58,392 nucleotides of DNA from a virus (lineage: Duplodnaviria; Caudoviricetes): the IMG/VR virus record IMGVR_UViG_3300021427_000036, positions 1 through 58,392 of that record; one strand, written 5' to 3'. The stretch's first letter is position 1, and every line of letters starts with the position of its first letter. The translations under genes were made by a program, and so were the position numbers. A model generated the notes under the pieces. The model worked only from the letters and a program-made list of their open reading frames with translations. It was not told the origin of the DNA and made no database searches. This document shows positions 6,948 to 58,392 of the stretch, piece after piece.

Positions 6948-7325
6948 TCAGGTTCCGATGAACTGGCCGGGAACGATGCGGACGATGAGTCGATCACCTT
7001 CGACAGTGTGGCCAACGACTACCTGAGTCGCTGACTTCGCTGCAGAGCTGACCACCCCAGTGGTGGTGTTGGCCGTGTAGACGGTCCCTGCCACACCCCC
7101 GAACTCGACGAGTTCGCCGTTGGTCAGGACATCTTGAGGATCTCCTGCGGCCTTGTCGAATGGGGATACCAGGAGACCGACGATTCCAGTCTGACCGGCT
7201 CCGATAACCACTCTGCCACTCGAGTTGATGCCCACACCAAGGGGTGCGGCACCACCTGTCAAAGCGGCACTGAGAGGCGCACGGAAAACACCGATTGCAG
7301 AATCGGTTTTGTCGATGCGTGCCAT
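6948..7325 (-). CDS. Capsid decoration/cement-like protein
   Basis: 125 aa G/V/T-rich, between scaffold and MCP. Confidence 0.65.
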   Translation of the reverse strand: MARIDKTDSAIGVFRAPLSAALTGGAAPLGVGINSSGRVVIGAGQTGIVGLLVSPFDKAAGDPQDVLTNGELVEFGGVAGTVYTANTTTGVVSSAAKSATQVVVGHTVEGDRLIVRIVPGQFIGT

Positions 7326-7356
7326 ATTTGGCTGTTATCCCTTCTTTGTTGGCTAG

Positions 7357-8034
7357 TTAGGAGCTGCTTTGACCCCTGTTCGTCATGCTCCTCGCCAAAG
7401 CGGGGAACTTTTCGATCAAGGCATCTTCGTCAACTTCCTTCTGGGACTTGCGACTGCCTCCGAACTTTGAGCCCGACTTGTCCTCTTGGCCATCAGCCAA
7501 AATGAGATGAGGCTTCGCCTTCGCCAAAGCATCTAGTGCAGACTTCACTGACGCTTCATCCAACTCGATCACCGAGGGATCATCTTCGTCTTGTTCTACG
7601 TCGATTTCACCTCGGTCAACGAGCTTCAGAGCATCGTCAACATCCCGGAACTTCAGCTTCTGAGCAACCTTCAGAATGGCGTTGTCGACCGCCTTCGTCT
7701 TGAGTGCTGCAGCGAGCTTCTGTGCCTTGGACTCGGCCTTGGAAGCATTCTCCTTAGCTTGGTCCGTTTCTGACTTCTCCTTGGAGTCCACGTCCTCGAG
7801 CTTCTTGGCCATTGCCTTGTGCTCGCGTTCGAACTTCTTCCGAAGATTCCTCTCCTTCCGAAGTGCTGACTTCAAAGCGTCAGTGTTTTCGGGCTTGTCC
7901 TTGTCTTCCTTCTCCTCGTCTTCATCCTCGGATTCATCTTTGTCCTCAGACTCCTCGTCTTTGTCCTCAGAGTCATCCGTCTCGAAGCCCCGAATTCGGA
8001 GGTTCTGCAACAAGAGTGGCAAGTCCTTACGCAT
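7357..8034 (-). CDS. Scaffolding protein
   Basis: Acidic N-terminus, coiled coil (ALKSALRKER), ALDALAKAKPHL motif. Confidence 0.8.
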   Translation of the reverse strand: MRKDLPLLLQNLRIRGFETDDSEDKDEESEDKDESEDEDEEKEDKDKPENTDALKSALRKERNLRKKFEREHKAMAKKLEDVDSKEKSETDQAKENASKAESKAQKLAAALKTKAVDNAILKVAQKLKFRDVDDALKLVDRGEIDVEQDEDDPSVIELDEASVKSALDALAKAKPHLILADGQEDKSGSKFGGSRKSQKEVDEDALIEKFPALARSMTNRGQSSS

Positions 8035-9958: not shown

Positions 9959-11343
9959 TATCGCCTCGTCTTAGCTCTGCTCTGACGGAAATTCGGCACA
10001 TCATTCCCTGCTATGCTGAAGTAACCGTAAATGAAACGACTTAGGGCCTCAGGCCCATGGTTATCCTTGTCCATCGGGACTTCGGATGAGTTTCTTGCCT
10101 CAGACTTCGTCTCAGGCCACCGGTACCCTTCTCGCATCTCCCATGCTAGGTGAGTGCAGCGATCCTTGTCAACAACGATCTGAGCCTGTTGTTCTTCAAC
10201 CGGCGCATGCTCTGGTCGGGGCTTCAACCGCGTCCGAATCATGGCGTTTCTAGTGGTTATCTCACCACCAGTATTCTTCATGTGTGGAATACCCAGATGT
10301 CGACTGAGGATGTTTGAGTCATCCGGGTTATGTGGATCGGGGTAGAAAGCCAAGCACTTCTTCCGCCAGGGATGATCCTTCAGAATCTCCTTGGCGATGC
10401 GCTCAGTATCCATCTCCATGATATAGTGCTCGCCCAGCACGTATACATTGTCGAATGGATCTACCTGAATCCAAAGCCACACCCACCAGTTAGTAAAACC
10501 GTAATCGACCGCTGCGTACAGAGGCCAATCAGGGTTGTACTTGATCCGCTTGAGATGAACATCGTCATCCCATTCCTTCATCACTCGCCCAACACGATCG
10601 ACAAATTCCCCACCATACTGGCGGCGAAACTCATCCTCAGTCAGGTCGTCCTCAGCCTCCAGGATTTCCGGATCCCGCCTGCCCCCAGGGAAGATCACAT
10701 GGTTGGTCCAACTGGGCATGCGCCATGATCGCCACGGCTTATTCTCATGCTCCAGCCCCCGTTTGAATCCCCAGAACAACAGATTGGTATCGACAGCCAA
10801 CTCAGGCACTCCTGTAGCAAGTGACCACCCTCGCTTGTCGGAAAGAGCAGGTCGTACATACTCCGTAAATGTCTTACGAGGGAGGCGTCCCGCCTCAGCT
10901 AGCACTACGAAGTCAAGACCTTCACCAACCAAGGTTTCAGGTTTCTGAGCTGAGCGACATTCTAGGTCAAAGCCCCAGTTTGTCACGATGTGCATACTGC
11001 CGTTCTCAGTATTCTTCAAGAACTTGCTCGAGACAGTGTCAATGCCTAGCTTCTTGAAGGTATCATAGACTACGCGAAACTCCTTCTCGCAGTCTATGTA
11101 GTTCGGACCAATGACCCAGCCTCGCTGAGGTTCACCGAAGCGATTGAGACAAAACGCGGCTGGTTCCATCTCCTTACCGCCAAGAAGTGTCTTACCCCAC
11201 CGTCGTCCGTTCGATAGCACCCGATGACGATGTTGATCGTAGTGAACCACCTTCTGACCATTGTGTGGCTCGTAATCAGTAGCTTCGAAGTATTTGTCCT
11301 TTCTCAGGACACCACCTTCGATCCCTGGAGCTGTTACTGGCAC
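9958..11343 (-). CDS. terL: Terminase large subunit
   Basis: Walker A SNGRRWGKT, GEGLDFVVLAEAG, nuclease AVDYGF and DNHGPEALSRF. Confidence 0.93.
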   Translation of the reverse strand: MPVTAPGIEGGVLRKDKYFEATDYEPHNGQKVVHYDQHRHRVLSNGRRWGKTLLGGKEMEPAAFCLNRFGEPQRGWVIGPNYIDCEKEFRVVYDTFKKLGIDTVSSKFLKNTENGSMHIVTNWGFDLECRSAQKPETLVGEGLDFVVLAEAGRLPRKTFTEYVRPALSDKRGWSLATGVPELAVDTNLLFWGFKRGLEHENKPWRSWRMPSWTNHVIFPGGRRDPEILEAEDDLTEDEFRRQYGGEFVDRVGRVMKEWDDDVHLKRIKYNPDWPLYAAVDYGFTNWWVWLWIQVDPFDNVYVLGEHYIMEMDTERIAKEILKDHPWRKKCLAFYPDPHNPDDSNILSRHLGIPHMKNTGGEITTRNAMIRTRLKPRPEHAPVEEQQAQIVVDKDRCTHLAWEMREGYRWPETKSEARNSSEVPMDKDNHGPEALSRFIYGYFSIAGNDVPNFRQSRAKTRR

Positions 11344-17870: not shown

Positions 17871-18323
17871 AAATTAATTTAATTTCGCAATTGAATTCGG
17901 GCGGGGCGTGGTCGCGTGTCGCGACCCCCCCGCTGCCGACGCGCCCGATCCCGCCCGCACTCGACCCTTGCCCGCCGCAACCATTGCGCCCGCAACGATC
18001 CCCGCCTGCGCCTGCCGAAACTCGCCCCTGCCCACGCGCCCCCGCCTGCCCGACCCCCGCCCCCCGGTCTCATCGAGACTCGGCGAGTCTCATCGAGTTT
18101 AGGTTGGCAAAAGTCCCCTGTGTCCTTACCGGTCTCAATGAGACCGCCGCATGACCCTCACGCGAACTCTACCAGAACCAGTAACTCGACTTCAGCTCCG
18201 GTCTCAATGAGACCGACCTGACCCGAGCAGCCGGCTTCGGCGAGATCGGTTTGGAAAAAGCGCCTGTGTCCTATACCCGTCTCCCCCGCCCCCCGGCATG
18301 AGCCGGAAGGCGAGGGCGCGGCG

Positions 18324-18611
18324 TCAGTAGTCCATGTTTATGCAGATGAAATGGTCATCGTGTCGATCATGGAGAACCTGGCCCCCGGCGTCGGCGCATT
18401 CGGCCCAAGCATCGGGAGAATCGTCGATGTGAGCTGCAAGCGTTTGCGGTGGGGAAACGTCGCAGTCAGTCTCGTCATGGATGGAGTCGAGGAGAATCAC
18501 CTCGTTTTGGCAAGGTGGCTTTCCGGGTGTGTTGGCTGAAAGCGTCGGATCAGCGGGGGTGCAAAAAGACGCAAGCCCCGAAATCGCGATCGCGGTTAGT
18601 GTTTTGATCAT
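18324..18611 (-). CDS. Secreted Cys-rich small protein / possible lipoprotein
   Basis: Signal-like MIKTLTAIAISGLASFC; five Cys; leaderless promoter. Confidence 0.65.
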   Translation of the reverse strand: MIKTLTAIAISGLASFCTPADPTLSANTPGKPPCQNEVILLDSIHDETDCDVSPPQTLAAHIDDSPDAWAECADAGGQVLHDRHDDHFICINMDY

Positions 18612-18617
18612 ACCCCC

Positions 18618-18783
18618 ATTATATCAGGGCTCAGCGACAATGTCACCGTCCGGAAGCCTCCCGATATCCTGGAGTGTACCAACAGCCTCGGCAAGCCTAG
18701 GGCTACTCCCGGTCTCAATGAGACTAGCCCAGGACAGTGTAAGGTCCACGGACGGTGACAAGGCACATGAGCCTTGATATAAT
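18618..18783. promoter_or_regulatory. Divergent leaderless promoter pair with central palindrome
   Basis: Both strands read GGACGGTGACA-N17-TATAAT-N6-ATG; palindrome at 18711. Confidence 0.85.
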
Positions 18784-18789
18784 GGAGGT

Positions 18790-19047
18790 ATGATCAACAC
18801 CTCACCCCAATACGAGGTTCACGTACATCTCGTTGACGTTATCGTAGCTTTACGCTGCGAGGCTGATCGAGCCGAACGCGAACAGTTCCCAAACGTTGCA
18901 AAACGCCAGCGCGCCCTCGCACTTCACCTGGAAAACGCTGAACTTCAACTCAACGCCCTACCTCATCCGGGTTACCGCCTCGAAGCTGCGGTTACTTACC
19001 GCTTCGTTCCGGTCATCAACCCCGCCCTGAAACCCGAATTCCGCTGA
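18790..19047 (+). CDS. Hypothetical early protein
   Basis: Leaderless promoter upstream, terminator downstream. Confidence 0.7.
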   Translation: MINTSPQYEVHVHLVDVIVALRCEADRAEREQFPNVAKRQRALALHLENAELQLNALPHPGYRLEAAVTYRFVPVINPALKPEFR

Positions 19048-19061
19048 TCCACCTACCGATC

Positions 19062-19086
19062 AAGGCCCCCACACCGGGGGCTTTTT
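19062..19086 (+). terminator. Intrinsic terminator
   Basis: AAGGCCCCC-acacc-GGGGGC followed by TTTTT. Confidence 0.8.
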
Positions 19087-19219
19087 CGCCACCTCATCGT
19101 CAGTCTCAATGAGACCGTAAGAAACCACCTCAGAACCCTACCAGAAACTCTACCTAAGCCCCAGTCTCAATGAGACCACACCCTCCGAGCCCCATCAAAG
19201 TTCAGGGCATCACCCCGGA

Positions 19220-19591
19220 TTAATCGTGAAGTTCAGCTAGTATGAAGCTAGCAACGGTTGGCATTGCGTGCTTGGCGCAAAAGCGGTAGGTATCGGGTTC
19301 GTTCAATAGCTCAGGCGCATCAGCGATTGTGAGCAAGCACCAAGCTGGTTCCGGGCATAGCAATTCGGAGCCATCGTGAGGTTCAGCATCAGCGTCAACG
19401 AGAATCGTGCCATCGTCGCCTGGCGATAGGATTGAGTTGAGATATGCCTCGGTTTGATAGTCGTGTTCGCAGGTAAAGCCCGAGTTGGGATTTAGCCGGT
19501 TGATCGCGAGAAAAGCTTCAGCACCGTTTGAGTATTGAGCGATAAAGCTCAAGTGATGTTGCTCAGCTTGCGAGTTGATCGCGAGTGTCAT
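19220..19591 (-). CDS. Hypothetical early protein
   Basis: SD AAAGGAG; promoter at 19641-19674. Confidence 0.65.
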   Translation of the reverse strand: MTLAINSQAEQHHLSFIAQYSNGAEAFLAINRLNPNSGFTCEHDYQTEAYLNSILSPGDDGTILVDADAEPHDGSELLCPEPAWCLLTIADAPELLNEPDTYRFCAKHAMPTVASFILAELHD

Positions 19592-19640
19592 CGGAGTCTC
19601 CTTTCGACCCTTGATTGGTTCGGAGTTGCATCATATACCC

Positions 19641-19674
19641 ATTTTATCATATCTCGAGACCTCTGTCACCGTCC
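19641..19674 (-). promoter_or_regulatory. Early-family promoter
   Basis: GGACGGTGACA-N17-TAAAAT. Confidence 0.75.
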
Positions 19675-19832
19675 CGAGTCCTCCAATGTTCCTCCAATAA
19701 ACCTCAAGCCACGGTCTCAATGAGTCTCAGCGAGACTCTCGGTCTCATTGAGACCCGCCGCAATGTGCTGAACCACCGGTCTCAATGAGACTCATGGTTC
19801 TTGTCGAGTTCCAGTGAGATTGCGTAGAACGG

Positions 19833-19862
19833 AAAAGCCCTAGGCGTTCTAGACCTAGGGCT
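19833..19862 (-). terminator. Intrinsic terminator
   Basis: AGCCCTAGG...CCTAGGGCT followed by TTT on the minus strand. Confidence 0.75.
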
Positions 19863-19874
19863 CCCGTCATCGAG

Positions 19875-20165
19875 TCACTCGGACTCGGCAAGTTCGGTGA
19901 CGGCGTCGTCGTCGGCCGGCGCGTCGTTGCGCTTGGCGTAGGCGTCGAGCAGCTCGTCAGCGCGTGCCGGACTGAAGACCCAGCGGCCATTCTCGTTCGC
20001 CCGTTCCCCGGTGTAATCGCGGAGCCAGCGTCGGAATGACTTGGAATCAGTGCCGGCGGCCGTGGCGAGGTCCTTGGCCGAGAAAGTGATTTCCTCAGCT
20101 TCGGTGACCTCGGTGTCGGCCTCAGTCGCCTCGTCGGCGACCGGCGTAACTGCGTTCTTGGTCAT
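19875..20165 (-). CDS. Winged-HTH-like protein with acidic arms
   Basis: FSAKDLATAAGTDSKSFRRWLR...GRWVF. Confidence 0.75.
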   Translation of the reverse strand: MTKNAVTPVADEATEADTEVTEAEEITFSAKDLATAAGTDSKSFRRWLRDYTGERANENGRWVFSPARADELLDAYAKRNDAPADDDAVTELAESE

Positions 20166-20215
20166 GATGGTTTTCCCCCCTTTCGGTATGAGGTGTCGTC
20201 GTTGATCATATAACC

Positions 20216-20371
20216 ATCATATCAAAGCTCGTAAACGATGTCACTGTCTTGAGACCTCCTCTTGTCCAGGAGTGTACCCAGAGCTTCGGTGAGCCTCAGG
20301 CACATCCCCGGTCTCAATGAGACTGTTAGCGGACCAGAGACAGTGACAAAGCATGCGAGCTTTGATATGAT
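20216..20371. promoter_or_regulatory. Second divergent leaderless promoter pair with central palindrome
   Basis: Both strands GACAGTGACA-N17-TATGAT-N6-ATG; palindrome at 20310. Confidence 0.85.
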
Positions 20372-20377
20372 GGGGGT

Positions 20378-21043
20378 ATGATGAATCAAAACCCCACACC
20401 GAATACCCCATCCCAGCATCTCTCGATGCCCGATCCATGCTCCCACTTCACCCGAATGGATGTGATCCGAGCCCGACTGGCCGGGGACAACGATGCCCTC
20501 GACTACATGCTCGACGCCGGCTGCGACATCCATGAAGCTGACATCCAGGACGACATGGACTATCTCGGAAGGCACGGCCTCTAACATGAAGATGACCAAC
20601 AACCCGGCGACATCCGATCAAGCTGATGTCCAAGGAAACTGCGATCGCTGCGGTACCTTGATCCGCCGTTACCGAGGCCAAGGTGACCTTCGCTGCTCAG
20701 GCTGCGACGCGAACTACAACTGCTTCGGCCAACGCCTACGCGACGATCTCCGTACGAGGATCAATCCTTCCGAGTACGACGAGGACATCGACGATCTGAC
20801 TGGCGACGAGCTCAGCTACCACACCTGGGGCGAGGACTACTGATGCCCAAACAAAACTGCTTCTCAGTCCGGCCAGGGTCGATCCTGGTCGCCTGGGAGA
20901 CCACCTGGAAGGTGCTCGAGAACAACACGCTCGAGCAATACCTGATCCTGGCTGAGATTGACAACCTCGGCCACCGCAAACGGGTGCGCTACTCCTCAGG
21001 CCAAACCATCTTCCTGAGGTGGAAACCCGACAACCGCCTATAA
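20378..21043 (+). CDS. Three small early ORFs (20378-20584; 20586-20843 Cys-rich; 20843-21043)
   Basis: Leaderless first start, tightly coupled stops/starts; CDRC..CSGC zinc-ribbon pattern in the second. Confidence 0.65.
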
Positions 21044-21692
21044 TCTACCCAAATCCCCTCGGGGCGGCCTCACGGCTGCATCGTGGAAGACCTCCGGTCT
21101 CAATGAGACCTGCCGGGGCATTTGTAACGGTCTCATTGAGACGTATGGTGGCAGCAAAGTAGCCTCCTGGTAGACGAATACGCCGAGCAGCCAAGTATCG
21201 GTGAGTTTGTGTTTCCAAAGTCATTCTAGTCCTATACCCGGACAAGGCTCAAGTGGTACGTGAGAGCGTTTTTGGACTCTTTTTGTCCCGTAAATGGCGA
21301 AACAGTGTTCTAGACACGGTAACTTCGGAAAACAGAACTTCACCCTTAGTTTGCGGACATGCCCCAAACACCCGGTTTCCCGAACACCTGTTCCCGCTAC
21401 CTTCACTTTTCCATCCACCAAACTCCAGAAACTACCTATACCCCAAATCCCAACTAAATCCCACTCCCCCGGACCATCATCCCCACCTTCACCTTCCCAA
21501 ATTCCCTACGTCTCCCCCAGCAATCACCCTCTCAATCACCCGATGACCCTCATTCAGAATCGCACGGACTCAATAAGACAGCTCTCAGGTCATTTGGGCA
21601 TCACCCTCACTCTCATAGCCATTCAAGAGTGTTGGCATATCCAGGAGCTTTACAAAAGCCCCGGCATCACCCCCGTATGTTCCAGAACATAC

Positions 21693-32799: not shown

Positions 32800-32832
32800 A
32801 TCATATCAAATCTCGTTATCCGTGTCACCGTT
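32800..32832 (-). promoter_or_regulatory. Early-family leaderless promoter
   Basis: AACGGTGACA-N17-TATGAT-N6-ATGATG. Confidence 0.78.
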
Positions 32833-33123
32833 CTCGTTCCTCCCTTGTTCCTGCGTTTTTCTCAGGCGAGACCTCAAACGTAGCGACTGTCGTTTAGTGT
32901 AGCGCAACTCGAAGTTGAGAGGACAGTTGATGAAGTCAGATCGTTCCAGTCGACGACCTAGTCGCTCTTCCACACAACCGATGCAAAGCATGTGAGCCCA
33001 CCCTGTTCTCTCGAGCATGTCATCCCAGAGATAGAACTGAAGCATATATAGCTCACCCATCATGTAGGTGTCGTGTCCGCAGTCCTGGCACATCCGTACT
33101 TCATTCTGAGTATACCAGGTCAT
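32806..33123 (-). CDS. Hypothetical Zn-binding protein
   Basis: CQDC...LCIGCVEERLGRRL; SD AAGGAGG. Confidence 0.7.
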   Translation of the reverse strand: MTWYTQNEVRMCQDCGHDTYMMGELYMLQFYLWDDMLERTGWAHMLCIGCVEERLGRRLERSDFINCPLNFELRYTKRQSLRLRSRLRKTQEQGRNENGDTDNEI

Positions 33124-33139
33124 CTCACCTCCTTACACA

Positions 33140-33600
33140 CGAAAGGAGCAGGGCAGTCTGCAGCTCAGACCACCCCGCTCAACCTCCGCCATGGCACAGT
33201 TGGTGTGGTTAATCCCTGTTCCCTTCATCCACACCCCCAGCGGGTCTCTCGCAAGACATTGGGACTCTGATGATGACCGGGCCATGTTAGTGGATGGCAG
33301 GGAGTGGTCAAACCTACGCTCCCCACCATCCGACCATTTGGGTTGAGGATGTGAGGAGAGGTGGCACAAGCAAGCGACACATCCCCACCCTTTACCCTTG
33401 TCCCAGCGTTAGAGGGCACTCTAACCGTGCCTTTCTGGAGTAGGCCAATGGCTTGGCCTTATTGATCATCCGGCATGGGATACACTTCGCTTCTGGTACT
33501 TAGGTCGTACCCTAAGACCTCCTTCACTTTCTCTCCCTTCGCTTGGTCGACTCTTGCAGGGCATGCCGGTGCCCCCTGCTGGGTGTCTAGCCAGCAGATC
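33140..33600 (-). ncRNA. Candidate large structured non-coding RNA
   Basis: At least nine consecutive or nested helices; mismatches in three long stems resolve as G-U only on the minus strand. Confidence 0.6.
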
Positions 33601-33766
33601 ATTCCCCCACGGTGTAGCTGGCGAAGCTCGTCACTACAGCCTTGGGTTCGTCGAGGGAAACCTCGATGTCGATCAAGGGATGGTCCTCGTCGTCGACGAC
33701 TTCCAGTGCCCCCTGACCGGCACGTCGGATTTCTGTGAGCTGGTCGATCAGATCGTCGACGGTCAT
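33599..33766 (-). CDS. 55-aa protein MTVDDLIDQL... (not in ORF track)
   Basis: ATGA overlap with upstream stop; N-terminus resembles TVGDLIDEL of 35645-35944. Confidence 0.6.
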   Translation of the reverse strand: MTVDDLIDQLTEIRRAGQGALEVVDDEDHPLIDIEVSLDEPKAVVTSFASYTVGE

Positions 33767-34197
33767 TCGAAGTCCAGGTCTTCCAGTTCATCGAGTTCTT
33801 CGATTGCCTCCAGCTCGTCATTGTCGAGCTCGGCGATGTCGTCGATGTCGTCGATGGGTGGTGCCTGCTTCTTCTTGGTCTCGGAGCGGGAGCCCTTTGC
33901 CCAAGTCTTGAACTCGGCTTCGAGTTCGTCGAGGTTGTCGGGGGAAATCTTCCACCGCTTCCCTTGACCTACCTTGCCGAATTTCTTCCGAAGAAACTTG
34001 CGGAAGGTGCGCTGGTCGGTGCCGAACTTTGCGGCAACTGCCTTGGCAGTGAACCCTTCGACCGAGGATTCCGAATCGTCCGAGTCATCCGGGTCATCCC
34101 CGAGTTCCTCAACCTCTTCATCCTCGACCTCGAGTTCCTCGACGTCAGCGTCTTCCAGTTCTTCGATGACCTCAGGTGCCTTCCTGCGGGCCATCAT
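33763..34197 (-). CDS. Acidic winged-HTH-like protein
   Basis: FTAKAVAAKFGTDQRTFRKFLR...GQGKRWKI flanked by D/E tracts; promoter TTGACA-N17-TACGAT at 34254-34282. Confidence 0.75.
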   Translation of the reverse strand: MMARRKAPEVIEELEDADVEELEVEDEEVEELGDDPDDSDDSESSVEGFTAKAVAAKFGTDQRTFRKFLRKKFGKVGQGKRWKISPDNLDELEAEFKTWAKGSRSETKKKQAPPIDDIDDIAELDNDELEAIEELDELEDLDFE

Positions 34198-34298
34198 ACC
34201 CCTTTCTTGGTTTCTGTTGTCGGTGAGGAGTCTTCCCCTCATTTGATATTACCATCGTATCAAATCTCGATACCGATGTCAACGATTTGCGGAACGAA

Positions 34299-34745: not shown

Positions 34746-35154
34746 AGCTTTGCTTCCTTTCTCCAGTCATCATATATCGCGTCGTGCGATATGATTCCAT
34801 GATATCAAATCCGCGAAACTTTGTAACCGTCCGGGGACCTCCTTAGAACCATTTTGTAACTCGCCGAAACTCGAACCTCCCCGGTCTCCCCGGTCTCAAT
34901 GAGTCTGGTCACAGTCTCATCGCGTCTACCATCAACATCAGACGAGATCAGATCTGAAACTCCCATTTAGAACACAAGTCCCCTCGACTTGGCTTCGGCG
35001 GGCACGAAATCCAAAGTCATTCTAGTCCTATACACGCGTCACGAGCAGCACGGGTGGGACGTTCCCCGCTCACCCTCGAGCCAGCGTCGGCAGCGTTCGT
35101 CATACGCGGTACACCCGCACGCACACTCATCGTCAGCGATTCGTCCGCTACCAT

Positions 35155-57274: not shown

Positions 57275-58392
57275 CAGCTTGCCTTCCTACCTCGAGCTCG
57301 TTCACGCAGTGCCTTTTCCTCATCCAGTTGACGAGCCAGCTTCACGATGTCTTGGTCACTACGGATATGAGCTACACCAACTAATGGGCCATTGTATGTA
57401 GTGCTACCCCCAGCAGCCGCAGCCATCGCTGGTGTGGTCATTCCTAGCGTTCCTGTGTTCAGTGGGATCGCAGACAAGGACCTACTCATGCTGCTAATGG
57501 ATCGCAGCAGGTTGCCCTCAGTGGCCCAGGCCTGCTTCTCGATATCCATGAGGGTATACTCGATCTTGGTCTTCGGAGAACCCTTGATACCATCCTTGAA
57601 GCCCTGCCAAAGTCCATCAGCAAATGCCCACCCTGCATCCCAAGCATCTTGAGCGAGACCAGTAACTAGGTCGATAGCATCCATGAAGAGTTGCCAGATC
57701 GCTTGGGGAAGACCGGTAAGAACATCCCAAATCCCGTTCCAAACATTGGTACCGATATCCCAAGCTGCACCGAAGAACTGGGGAACAGCTCCAATCAACC
57801 AGTTAAGGATATCAGTGAAGAATCCAATGACTATGCCTGGAATCTGCTGTATCCAACCCCAAATGGTAGAGAATACCGTACTCCCAAAGTTCCACAAGAA
57901 ACTAACGACCTGAGGAACCCACGTTACCAGGAAGTTCCAGATACCTGTGAAGAATGTCACAAACCATCCAGGCAGCTGACTGATCCAGTCAATGATCCCA
58001 TGTACAAGCGCAAAGCCAAATTCCCAAGCCCATAAAACAGCTGCTGGGATCCAGTCCAGGAGAAGATCACTGATGAGGGTAAGAACCTTGATTATGGCAT
58101 CCTGCATCAGCTTTTGTGCTCTAATCTTAAACCTAGCCATGGCCCCGGCAATCTCACCCAAAACACGACCAATGGCATAACCCACTTGTCTAGGCGATGG
58201 AATCAGTCCCCATATGGCTTTAGCTGCTTCACTCACATATCCGGCAATTATGCCGGGGAGTTCCTGGAAGAAGTCAACAACAGCCCCTGCTGCAGTTGAC
58301 AATCCATCAACCAAACCGTTCCAGACATCCGCAAACCAAGAACCAACTCCAGACACGAATCCTGTGATAGCATTCCAGATATCACTGAAGAA
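57274..58392 (-). CDS. Tape measure protein, C-terminal part (joined protein about 894 aa)
   Basis: Periodic W/F amphipathic repeats (WFADVWNGL, WDIGTNVWNGIW); directly upstream of Dit; frame continuous with 1-1704. Confidence 0.9.
   Translation of the reverse strand, partial: FFSDIWNAITGFVSGVGSWFADVWNGLVDGLSTAAGAVVDFFQELPGIIAGYVSEAAKAIWGLIPSPRQVGYAIGRVLGEIAGAMARFKIRAQKLMQDAIIKVLTLISDLLLDWIPAAVLWAWEFGFALVHGIIDWISQLPGWFVTFFTGIWNFLVTWVPQVVSFLWNFGSTVFSTIWGWIQQIPGIVIGFFTDILNWLIGAVPQFFGAAWDIGTNVWNGIWDVLTGLPQAIWQLFMDAIDLVTGLAQDAWDAGWAFADGLWQGFKDGIKGSPKTKIEYTLMDIEKQAWATEGNLLRSISSMSRSLSAIPLNTGTLGMTTPAMAAAAGGSTTYNGPLVGVAHIRSDQDIVKLARQLDEEKALRERARGRKAS
58255..58392. repeat. Terminal direct repeat copy 2
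   Basis: Matches 1-138; the last 126 bp are exact. Confidence 0.95.

Follow-up and report, generated by a model that had tools for sequence, protein, structure and literature searches.

The 475-nt gap between the ORFs o55 and o105 contains what comparison with related phages identifies as a conserved, non-coding, minus-strand RNA, predicted to fold into multiple helices and to lie at the 3' end of an early transcription unit. The element was found in the window (the whole stretch of DNA analysed here, a complete IMG/VR virus record of 58,392 bases) and in two metagenome contigs, L014 and L003, and its three copies probably represent a real, functional RNA family that has not been described previously. 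An earlier, sequence-only reading of this DNA had proposed an undescribed large phage RNA at this place. Its view of the RNA as structured, non-coding, encoded on the minus strand and possibly undescribed was borne out, but the RNA does not appear to be a free-standing gene, as it forms the 3' untranslated region (3' UTR) of an operon. The roles suggested in that reading (decoy, antitoxin mimic or scaffold) gained no support. The positions of its parts, and of the neighbouring genes, are given in Table 1.

Table 1. Parts of the RNA element, neighbouring genes and predicted promoter-like sites (window coordinates).
Feature	Position	Strand	Description and helix arms	Basis
Structured RNA element, whole	33136..33598	-	from the o55 stop codon to the terminator tail	helices, homologues
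Outer 5' helix	33576..33597	-	33576-82/33591-97	
5' domain	33470..33569	-	closed by an 8-bp helix (33562-69/33470-77); purine-rich internal loop and hairpin inside	
Further 5' helices	33495..33520	-	33516-20/33502-06 and 33507-11/33495-99	
H1 hairpin	33442..33459	-	GGCCAA-GCCA-UUGGCC (33442-48/33453-59); 16-nt island identical in L014	
S1 module	33402..33439	-	helix P-A (33435-39/33402-06) enclosing the overlapping stems A (33427-31/33415-19) and B (33419-25/33408-14)	
Island I2	33330..33344	-	AACCCAAAUGGUCGG; 15 nt identical in L014, I2-like copy in L003	
P-C hairpin	33292..33331	-	13-bp stem (33292-304/33319-31) with two G-U pairs	
Island I3	33268..33280	-	CCGGUCAUCAUCA; 13 nt identical in L014	
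3' multibranch domain	33190..33286	-	closed by long-range helix P-E (33281-86/33190-95), containing hairpin 33229-35/33202-08	
3' end	33136..33184	-	GGUUGAG island, 15-bp terminator hairpin (33166-80/33146-60) and CUUUCGUGUG tail	
o159	33763..34242	-	acidic protein with basic HTH-like centre; first gene of the unit	ORF
o55	33599..33766	-	small acidic protein; stop codon directly 5' of the RNA	ORF
o105	32806..33123	-	gene 3' of the RNA, outside the element	phrog_6053
Promoter-like site	34254..34282	-	TTGACA-N17-TACGAT with TG, upstream of o159	10/12 matches plus TG
Next promoter-like site	32800..32828	-	GTGACA-N17-TATGAT with TG, opens the following unit	

The window has a direct terminal repeat of 138 nt (1-138 and 58255-58392, 98% identical), which is consistent with a complete genome assembled with overlapping ends. 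Nearly all of its long ORFs are on the minus strand, and its genes include a family A DNA polymerase, a primase-helicase and siphovirus-type tail proteins. The genome had been called tightly packed, which is true only in part, as several ORF-poor gaps of 200-500 nt are found at 17.4-21.7 kb. At least ten copies of an inverted repeat, CCGGTCTCAATGAGACC, are present (18129-21127 and 34882-34908), concentrated in the same 17.4-21.7 kb stretch; they could be an operator or terminator array.

The gene unit that precedes the RNA begins with o159, which matches Pfam HTH_17 only weakly (E 9.3e-4; 19.9 bits, under the 27-bit cut-off) and PHROG families phrog_21603 and phrog_66, and which has homologues in L003, L004, L014, L025 and seven further viral contigs. 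The upstream promoter attributed to an acidic wHTH gene was present as a promoter-like site, while the HTH assignment itself is weak by this score. That site is predicted to drive o159, o55 and the RNA, and belongs to a family of promoter-like repeats with about nine copies in the window (families D2-D4, D14). These near-identical sites, GTGACA/TTGACA-N17-TGATATGAT, all on the minus strand, precede small early operons (at 18610, 19627, 20202, 23592, 29507, 32786, 34246, 34785 and 40798). The o55 protein had no match in Pfam or PHROG, and is 57% identical over 49 residues to the product of an ORF at the equivalent position in L014 (7870-8016). Downstream of the RNA, o105 has a strong Shine-Dalgarno sequence without a promoter of its own, and its homologue in L014 is found elsewhere (10424-10615).

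Base-by-base checking on both strands found that ten of the eleven helices proposed in the sequence-only reading are perfectly complementary or contain wobble pairs only (these are the helices with arms in Table 1, other than P-A and stem A). The eleventh, 33340-53/33378-90, fails as it was written: its arms are unequal, and it pairs only as a 9-bp core that needs a bulge. The mismatches of the long stems had been described as A-C on the plus strand and hence G-U on the minus strand, and this is the case at all five of the non-Watson-Crick positions in two long stems (two in 33292-331 and three in 33146-180). The argument for a minus-strand RNA is therefore sound. The 15-bp terminal stem is likewise present, with CUUUCGUGUG following it.

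The loop of the hairpin at 33408-25 is complementary to 33427-31, as had been noticed, and the alternative stem that this creates (stem A) is real and is conserved in L014. Stems A and B overlap, and so cannot both form fully. A pseudoknot of the two was considered and rejected, as the connecting loops, of 1 nt each, were judged too short to cross a 5-bp stem. We read the two stems as probable mutually exclusive alternatives.

Relatives of the phage were gathered through its DNA polymerase, which led to three viral contigs, and through a profile of the nearby o232 protein, which led to ten metagenome loci. Syntenic homologues of the element are present in L014 (8032-8480) and L003 (20289-20580), both from metagenomes; membership thus stands at three contigs, and each helix has been observed in two or three sequences at most. 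L014 has the same gene order as the window, with o148 (75% identical), the HTH gene (53%) and o55 (57%), after which come a gap of about 490 nt, a promoter and a homologue of o113. In L003, an element of about 290 nt is directly 3' of the HTH gene. A domain of 100 nt is common to this element and the 5' end of its L014 counterpart (E 6e-7 and 7e-6 in a small database), and L003 also has H1-like and I2-like sequences.

The gap is the least conserved of five regions compared between the window and L014, at 54.8% identity as against 59-69% for four flanking genes. Despite this, the two gaps share colinear exact matches of 16, 15, 13, 9, 7, 7 and 7 nt, and the three longest are on a par with the best found in the o148 gene (75% identical). 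By our arithmetic, a 16-mer common to two sequences of about 480 nt is expected 5e-5 times by chance. Islands of this kind within a diverged background are a pattern typical of structured RNAs. The outermost pair of H1, A-U in the window, is G-C in L014.

Helices were compared in registers anchored on these islands, since a MAFFT alignment of the window and L014 misplaces two stems; RNAalifold run on that alignment was discarded for counting, as P-C and P-E were misaligned. Nine helices, with registers chosen by hand, comprise 69 pairs, of which all 69 are standard in the window and 68 in L014 in this curated register. Between the two phages 34 pairs are unchanged, 7 are changed on one side and 27 on both sides. 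The closing helix of the 5' domain has a co-located counterpart in L014, with 4 of its 8 pairs changed on both sides. Helix P-A, stem A and stem B recur at equal offsets in different sequence, with 2, 3 and 3 double changes, respectively. At the position equivalent to P-C, L014 has a 12-bp stem in which all 12 pairs are kept (5 double and 2 single changes). P-E is GGAGCC/GGCUCC in L014, with 4 of 6 pairs changed on both sides, and the terminator is a 16-bp stem, with 5 double and 3 single changes among 15 pairs. The compensatory changes that the proposal of a selected RNA called for are thus found, both here and between L014 and L003 (below), within a family of three members.

As the nine-helix table is curated, we sought less biased tests. 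Helices were taken from the window alone and sought at equal offsets in L014, against a shuffled L014 segment. The S1 module gave 16 matched base pairs, compared to 2.7 +/- 3.4 in shuffles (3 of 2000 as high), while 68 of 2000 shuffles did as well for P-C and 30 of 2000 for the terminator. For P-E, the joint chance of a Watson-Crick helix of at least 6 bp in both sequences is about 0.001, a post hoc figure with about 20 possible anchor pairs. Counting all co-located helices of at least 6 bp, with loose tolerance, gave no significant excess (24, compared to 21.1 +/- 4.4 in shuffles; 43 of 150 as high). GC-rich sequence offers many chance helices, and only those that are tightly anchored are informative. 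For the 100-nt 5' domain that L014 shares with L003, RNAalifold predicts 28 pairs, all standard in both sequences, and 7 of them are changed on both sides, compared to 0-2 in slid controls (2 of 500 shuffles). The interiors of the domains (P-B, the 3' multibranch domain, where no alignment with L014 is possible, and the 5' domain of the window) do not align between members, and part of the length of the element may therefore be unconstrained.

In the window, folding energy is only modestly unusual and on its own not convincing. The predicted energy of the gap is -198.4 kcal/mol on the minus strand (z -2.58; equalled or bettered by 2 of 100 shuffles) and -177.0 kcal/mol on the plus strand (z -1.98; 2 of 100). 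The core, 33139-33462, has a z of -3.39 (1 of 100), and the neighbouring coding gene at 33763-34242, used as a control, a z of -2.17 (1 of 100). With a window z so near the control value, it is the homologues that carry the case. There, folding clearly exceeds that of shuffled controls: the L014 element gives -218.0 kcal/mol and a z of -5.17 in the sense direction (0 of 100 shuffles as good; antisense z -2.08), and the L003 element a z of -6.10 (0 of 200; antisense z -1.59).

Could the gap simply be a fast-evolving, GC-rich spacer without a selected function, with hairpins and short common words left over from common descent? The global helix test, the window z close to that of the coding control, and a membership of only three would agree with this. 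It does not account for exact islands that match the best of a 75%-identical protein gene in the region with the lowest overall identity of the five, for z values of -5 and -6 on one strand only, or for the compensatory changes, and we consider it quite unlikely.

In all three phages the order is promoter, HTH gene, RNA, terminator hairpin and next promoter; the first promoter is sigma-70-like, and the hairpin is long, includes G-U pairs and has a U/G-rich tail. The sites equivalent to the HTH-gene promoter are at 7364-7393 in L014 and 19791-19819 in L003; the next promoter directly follows the terminal hairpin in L014 (8489-8518) and L003 (20571-20599), and comes after o105, an inserted gene, in the window. 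Between the HTH promoter and the hairpin, L014 and L003 have no promoter-like site; the only one in this stretch of the window, 33311-33284, is inside P-C and is not conserved. A pattern scan classed the terminal stem as an intrinsic terminator (15 bp, 9 of them G-C, with the tail CTTTCGTGTG), although the tail is only moderately U-rich and one of its U residues is changed in a strain variant. By these predictions the RNA has the same 3' terminus as the upstream mRNA and lacks a separate promoter, as is the case for 3'-UTR-derived RNAs. Judged from these signals, the element is not a free-standing gene but the 3' untranslated part of the HTH operon, ending at the operon terminator.

A hairpin with a YGUGU tail followed by a promoter was found, by eye, at the equivalent place in 11 of 13 relatives, and the hairpin of the element is at the position of the plain terminator in relatives without the RNA. 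This operon anatomy indicates that the RNA is an accessory module between the last gene and the terminator. The element is absent after the HTH gene in L004 and L025. A scan with an HTH profile found 11 loci, three of which are L003, L004 and L025 again, and the remaining eight have a hairpin with a YGUGU tail and then a promoter, small ORFs, or unrelated gaps. As ten further relatives of the HTH gene are followed only by a hairpin or an unrelated gap, the RNA appears to be dispensable for the operon.

Several of these loci have features of their own. In L036 (2327-2659) and L025 (8102-8192), a conserved hairpin with a CUGUGU tail follows the HTH gene, and in L036 a promoter-like TTGACG-N17-GATACAAT directly before this hairpin could give a very short transcript. 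L041 (3610-3967) and L046 (3259-3731) have long gene-free gaps after the HTH gene that are unrelated in sequence to the element, and short repeats of CAAACC type are present in the gap of L046. In L025, an ORF (7287-7655) with a LAGLIDADG-like motif, a possible homing endonuclease, directly precedes the HTH gene.

In the reading that we prefer, the o159-o55 message would start at the promoter of the acidic HTH gene and stop at the intrinsic terminator of this operon, with the RNA as its untranslated 3' part. Read from 5' to 3', the RNA would begin with a closed 5' domain, followed by the invariant H1, the S1 module with its mutually exclusive stems and a variable hairpin; next would come a long hairpin with G-U pairs between two invariant islands of single-stranded sequence, then the multibranch domain closed by P-E, and finally the terminator. 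Its terminator-protected 3' portion may accumulate as a stable RNA that acts by its shape rather than by coding, as RNAs derived from 3' UTRs and large 'ornate' RNAs do, with I2, I3 and the loop of H1 as putative binding sites for a phage or host factor. We see an even chance that a stable 3'-UTR-derived RNA of this kind, acting through its fold, exists; the comparison shows its conservation, strand, structure and place in the operon, while its transcription, stability and action in trans are what we infer.

The main rival to such a stable 3'-end RNA is a cis-acting switch, in which the RNA would sense a factor and set whether the terminator forms, and hence whether transcription continues into the next genes (o105 in this phage). 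The terminator is part of the element, o105 comes next in the window with its strong Shine-Dalgarno sequence and no promoter, and both of the mutually exclusive stems of S1 are kept by compensatory change. In addition, a CUCAACC sequence just 5' of I2 could pair with the conserved GGUUGAG at the foot of the terminator stem, and is also part of a local helix, P-B, giving a three-way competition. L003 has a different complementarity of 8-9 bp at the equivalent two places, with 31 of 5000 shuffles as good. The same test, however, gave a weak result in the window, where 343 of 5000 shuffles did as well, and a null one in L014 (2145 of 5000). Moreover, in L014 and L003 a promoter directly follows the hairpin, so that the downstream genes are independent of read-through; some 160 nt separate the supposed antiterminator strand from the terminator downstream of it, an uncommon distance for attenuators; and no riboswitch or T-box model matched. 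On balance, we think a read-through switch unlikely.

A passive structured 3' UTR, whose hairpins would shield the upstream message from 3' exonucleases or insulate adjacent units without any specific partner, would fit the position between stop codon and terminator, the dispensability of the element in relatives, and the freely varying domain interiors. For such a role, however, invariant islands of 13-16 single-stranded nucleotides and conserved alternative stems would be needless, and one terminator hairpin would suffice. We rate this explanation as improbable, about on a par with a spacer without function.

The stretch is carried by four soil DNA runs from one study, with no RNA run among those listed. 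Strain contigs are near-identical over 33166-33711, with 2 changes. Two variants in the terminator stem, at 33171 and 33157, preserve base pairs of the minus strand but not of the plus strand (G-U to A-U and U-A to U-G). Leftwards from 33165 the contigs diverge sharply, in one of them by 35 substitutions and 6 indels over 32992-33165, an interval that takes in the 3' arm of the terminator as well as the Shine-Dalgarno sequence and 5' part of o105. The abrupt change from near-identity to divergence suggests a recombination junction in the terminator loop. As the strain contigs are near-identical over the RNA, they add no covariation beyond the two terminator changes. In a minimum-free-energy fold, CUCCUU of the terminator tail can pair with the AAGGAG Shine-Dalgarno sequence of o105 (33124-33145), in this phage only.

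The gap was searched for coding capacity. Stop codons are present in all three sense frames, and the longest sense ORF (78 amino acids, 33133-33369, minus strand) begins with TTG and has no Shine-Dalgarno sequence, in agreement with the earlier statement that no convincing Shine-Dalgarno-led ORF covers the region. A small protein-coding gene, or the remains of a pseudogene, could be argued from this ORF, and from a 98-residue ORF in L014 that spans I2 and I3 in one frame, where the I2-I3 spacing differs by 6 nt between the phages. Yet the island spacings differ by 2, 11, 6, 21 and 2 nt in all, those of 2, 11 and 2 nt counting against a coding gene, and the frame of H1 relative to I2 is not the same in the window and L014. 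Every third position of the islands is identical too, and similarity after translation is no stronger in one frame or strand than in several others, being weak in each. A search of the 78-residue ORF against 1.84 billion representatives found one unrelated repetitive protein and no protein family. The homologues thus show no codon-type conservation and no conserved reading frame, and a coding explanation is barely credible.

Nor does the RNA belong to a described family among those searched. No model reached its gathering threshold anywhere in the window in Rfam 15 (4227 models, among which we take those for GOLLD, ROOL and OLE to be included). With E values up to 10, 32900-33900 gave only a snoRNA model on the plus strand, which at 13.6 bits was well under its threshold of 49, and the whole of L014 and L003 gave two weak snoRNA matches, both outside the element. 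ARAGORN found no tRNA or tmRNA gene in the window, in line with the sequence-only reading, which had recognised neither in the element, and a literature search at listing level found no published description of the element. With regard to an antitoxin-type RNA, the gap contains no direct-repeat family resembling ToxI repeats, and the neighbouring genes have no match to a toxin family. The complement of I3 was found at 8 sites in the window, compared to 2.57 expected (2 of 100 shuffles as high), which is not convincing, and that of I2 at one other site, with 3 mismatches.

A function at the level of DNA, as a replication origin, a single-strand initiation site or a cluster of protein-binding palindromes, might be suspected from several stems that are perfect DNA palindromes, such as H1 and P-E, and folding of same-strand single-stranded DNA would also tolerate G-T pairs. 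The window gap, however, has no direct-repeat or iteron families and no AT-rich stretch (GC is 54-58% in every 100-nt bin), the conserved order of promoter, gene, element, terminator and promoter points to a transcript, and the helices covary, where protein sites would keep their sequence. We regard a DNA element as highly improbable.

Wider searches added no members. A phage GenBank collection gave no DNA match to the element and none to o159, and distant matches only to o105; single-protein scans of viral contigs with o159, o105 and o232 gave no match, and the o232 profile none in genome contigs. A DNA search of the three DNA-polymerase relatives with 33000-33800 found chance words only (best E 0.036). 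A pattern joining I2 to I3 matched viral contigs once, inside a 142-residue ORF, and genome contigs nine times, all within unrelated coding regions, while one joining H1 to CAAGGGT had two coding matches in genome contigs. A pattern for the 5' domain found only L003's own contig among viral contigs, and nothing in genome contigs.

A model of the L014/L003 5' domain, R1, recovered only its two training sequences from 16 sources. It had no match in the interior of the 5' domain of the window, which is therefore not recognisably the P2-P4 insert of L014 and L003. With filters off, R1 did match the I2/P-C hairpin (33278-33337; 19.9 bits, E 6.4e-5 over 801 bases), as a closing stem without its 73-nt insert, and P-C resembles the closing stem of the L014/L003 5' domain. 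This type of stem, flanked by GGUCGG and CCAC-AA, is present once in the window, once in L003 and twice in L014. Since R1 matches the I2/P-C hairpin as a closing stem lacking the insert, the family looks modular. A proposal that goes beyond our preferred reading is that the element represents a class of large phage riboregulators: bistable, multi-domain RNAs that would end an early operon, bind a phage or host factor, and either set terminator formation or assemble into a higher-order RNA particle, with modules (H1, and I2/P-C with or without the 73-nt insert) shuffled and duplicated between phages. We give this only a small chance of being right.

To our knowledge, only a small number of large structured RNAs have been described in phages, and hardly any in those of soil. 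This element offers a clear operon context, invariant single-stranded islands as candidate binding sites, alternative stems kept by compensatory change, and modular evolution that is visible between relatives. If it does bind a factor or control read-through, it would be a new RNA tool in the control of early phage genes; if it is merely a passive 3' UTR, it would still show that accessory RNA modules can be inserted between a gene and its terminator. On present comparisons, its novelty is that of a sequence unrelated to any described family, and novelty of mechanism cannot be claimed yet.

How does the element compare with known systems? In phage HK022, the put RNAs, which measure about 70 nt and fold into two stem-loops, enable RNA polymerase to resist terminators. 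Like them, the element is a folded, phage-encoded RNA in an early transcript, just before a terminator that separates gene blocks, but it is much longer (about 460 nt), and each later block in this phage has its own promoter. With attenuators, riboswitches and T-box leaders it shares alternative, exclusive pairings and a conserved strand complementary to the base of the terminator; unlike them, it is downstream of genes rather than in a 5' leader, and matches no known aptamer. Small RNAs derived from 3' UTRs share the terminator of the upstream mRNA. The element resembles these in its place between a stop codon and the intrinsic terminator of the operon, with no promoter of its own found, and differs in being several times longer than typical members, and in that a search for complementary sites in the phage was not convincing.

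The large 'ornate' RNAs GOLLD, ROOL and OLE are the subject of a cryo-EM paper (PMC12286853). Such RNAs are carried by phages and bacteria. The element is like them in being a long (300-500 nt or more), multi-domain non-coding RNA in a phage genome, with invariant loop and junction islands between covarying stems. It is unlike them in being smaller, in not being beside tRNA genes, in its position in an operon 3' UTR, and in being known from three soil-phage contigs only; it also has no sequence or structure match to any of the Rfam models searched. Some of its arms are palindromic, which might permit self-association, by analogy with the ornate RNAs. Thus, while the element appears to be a member of no described family, in its likely way of working it is most like a 3'-UTR-derived RNA or an ornate RNA.
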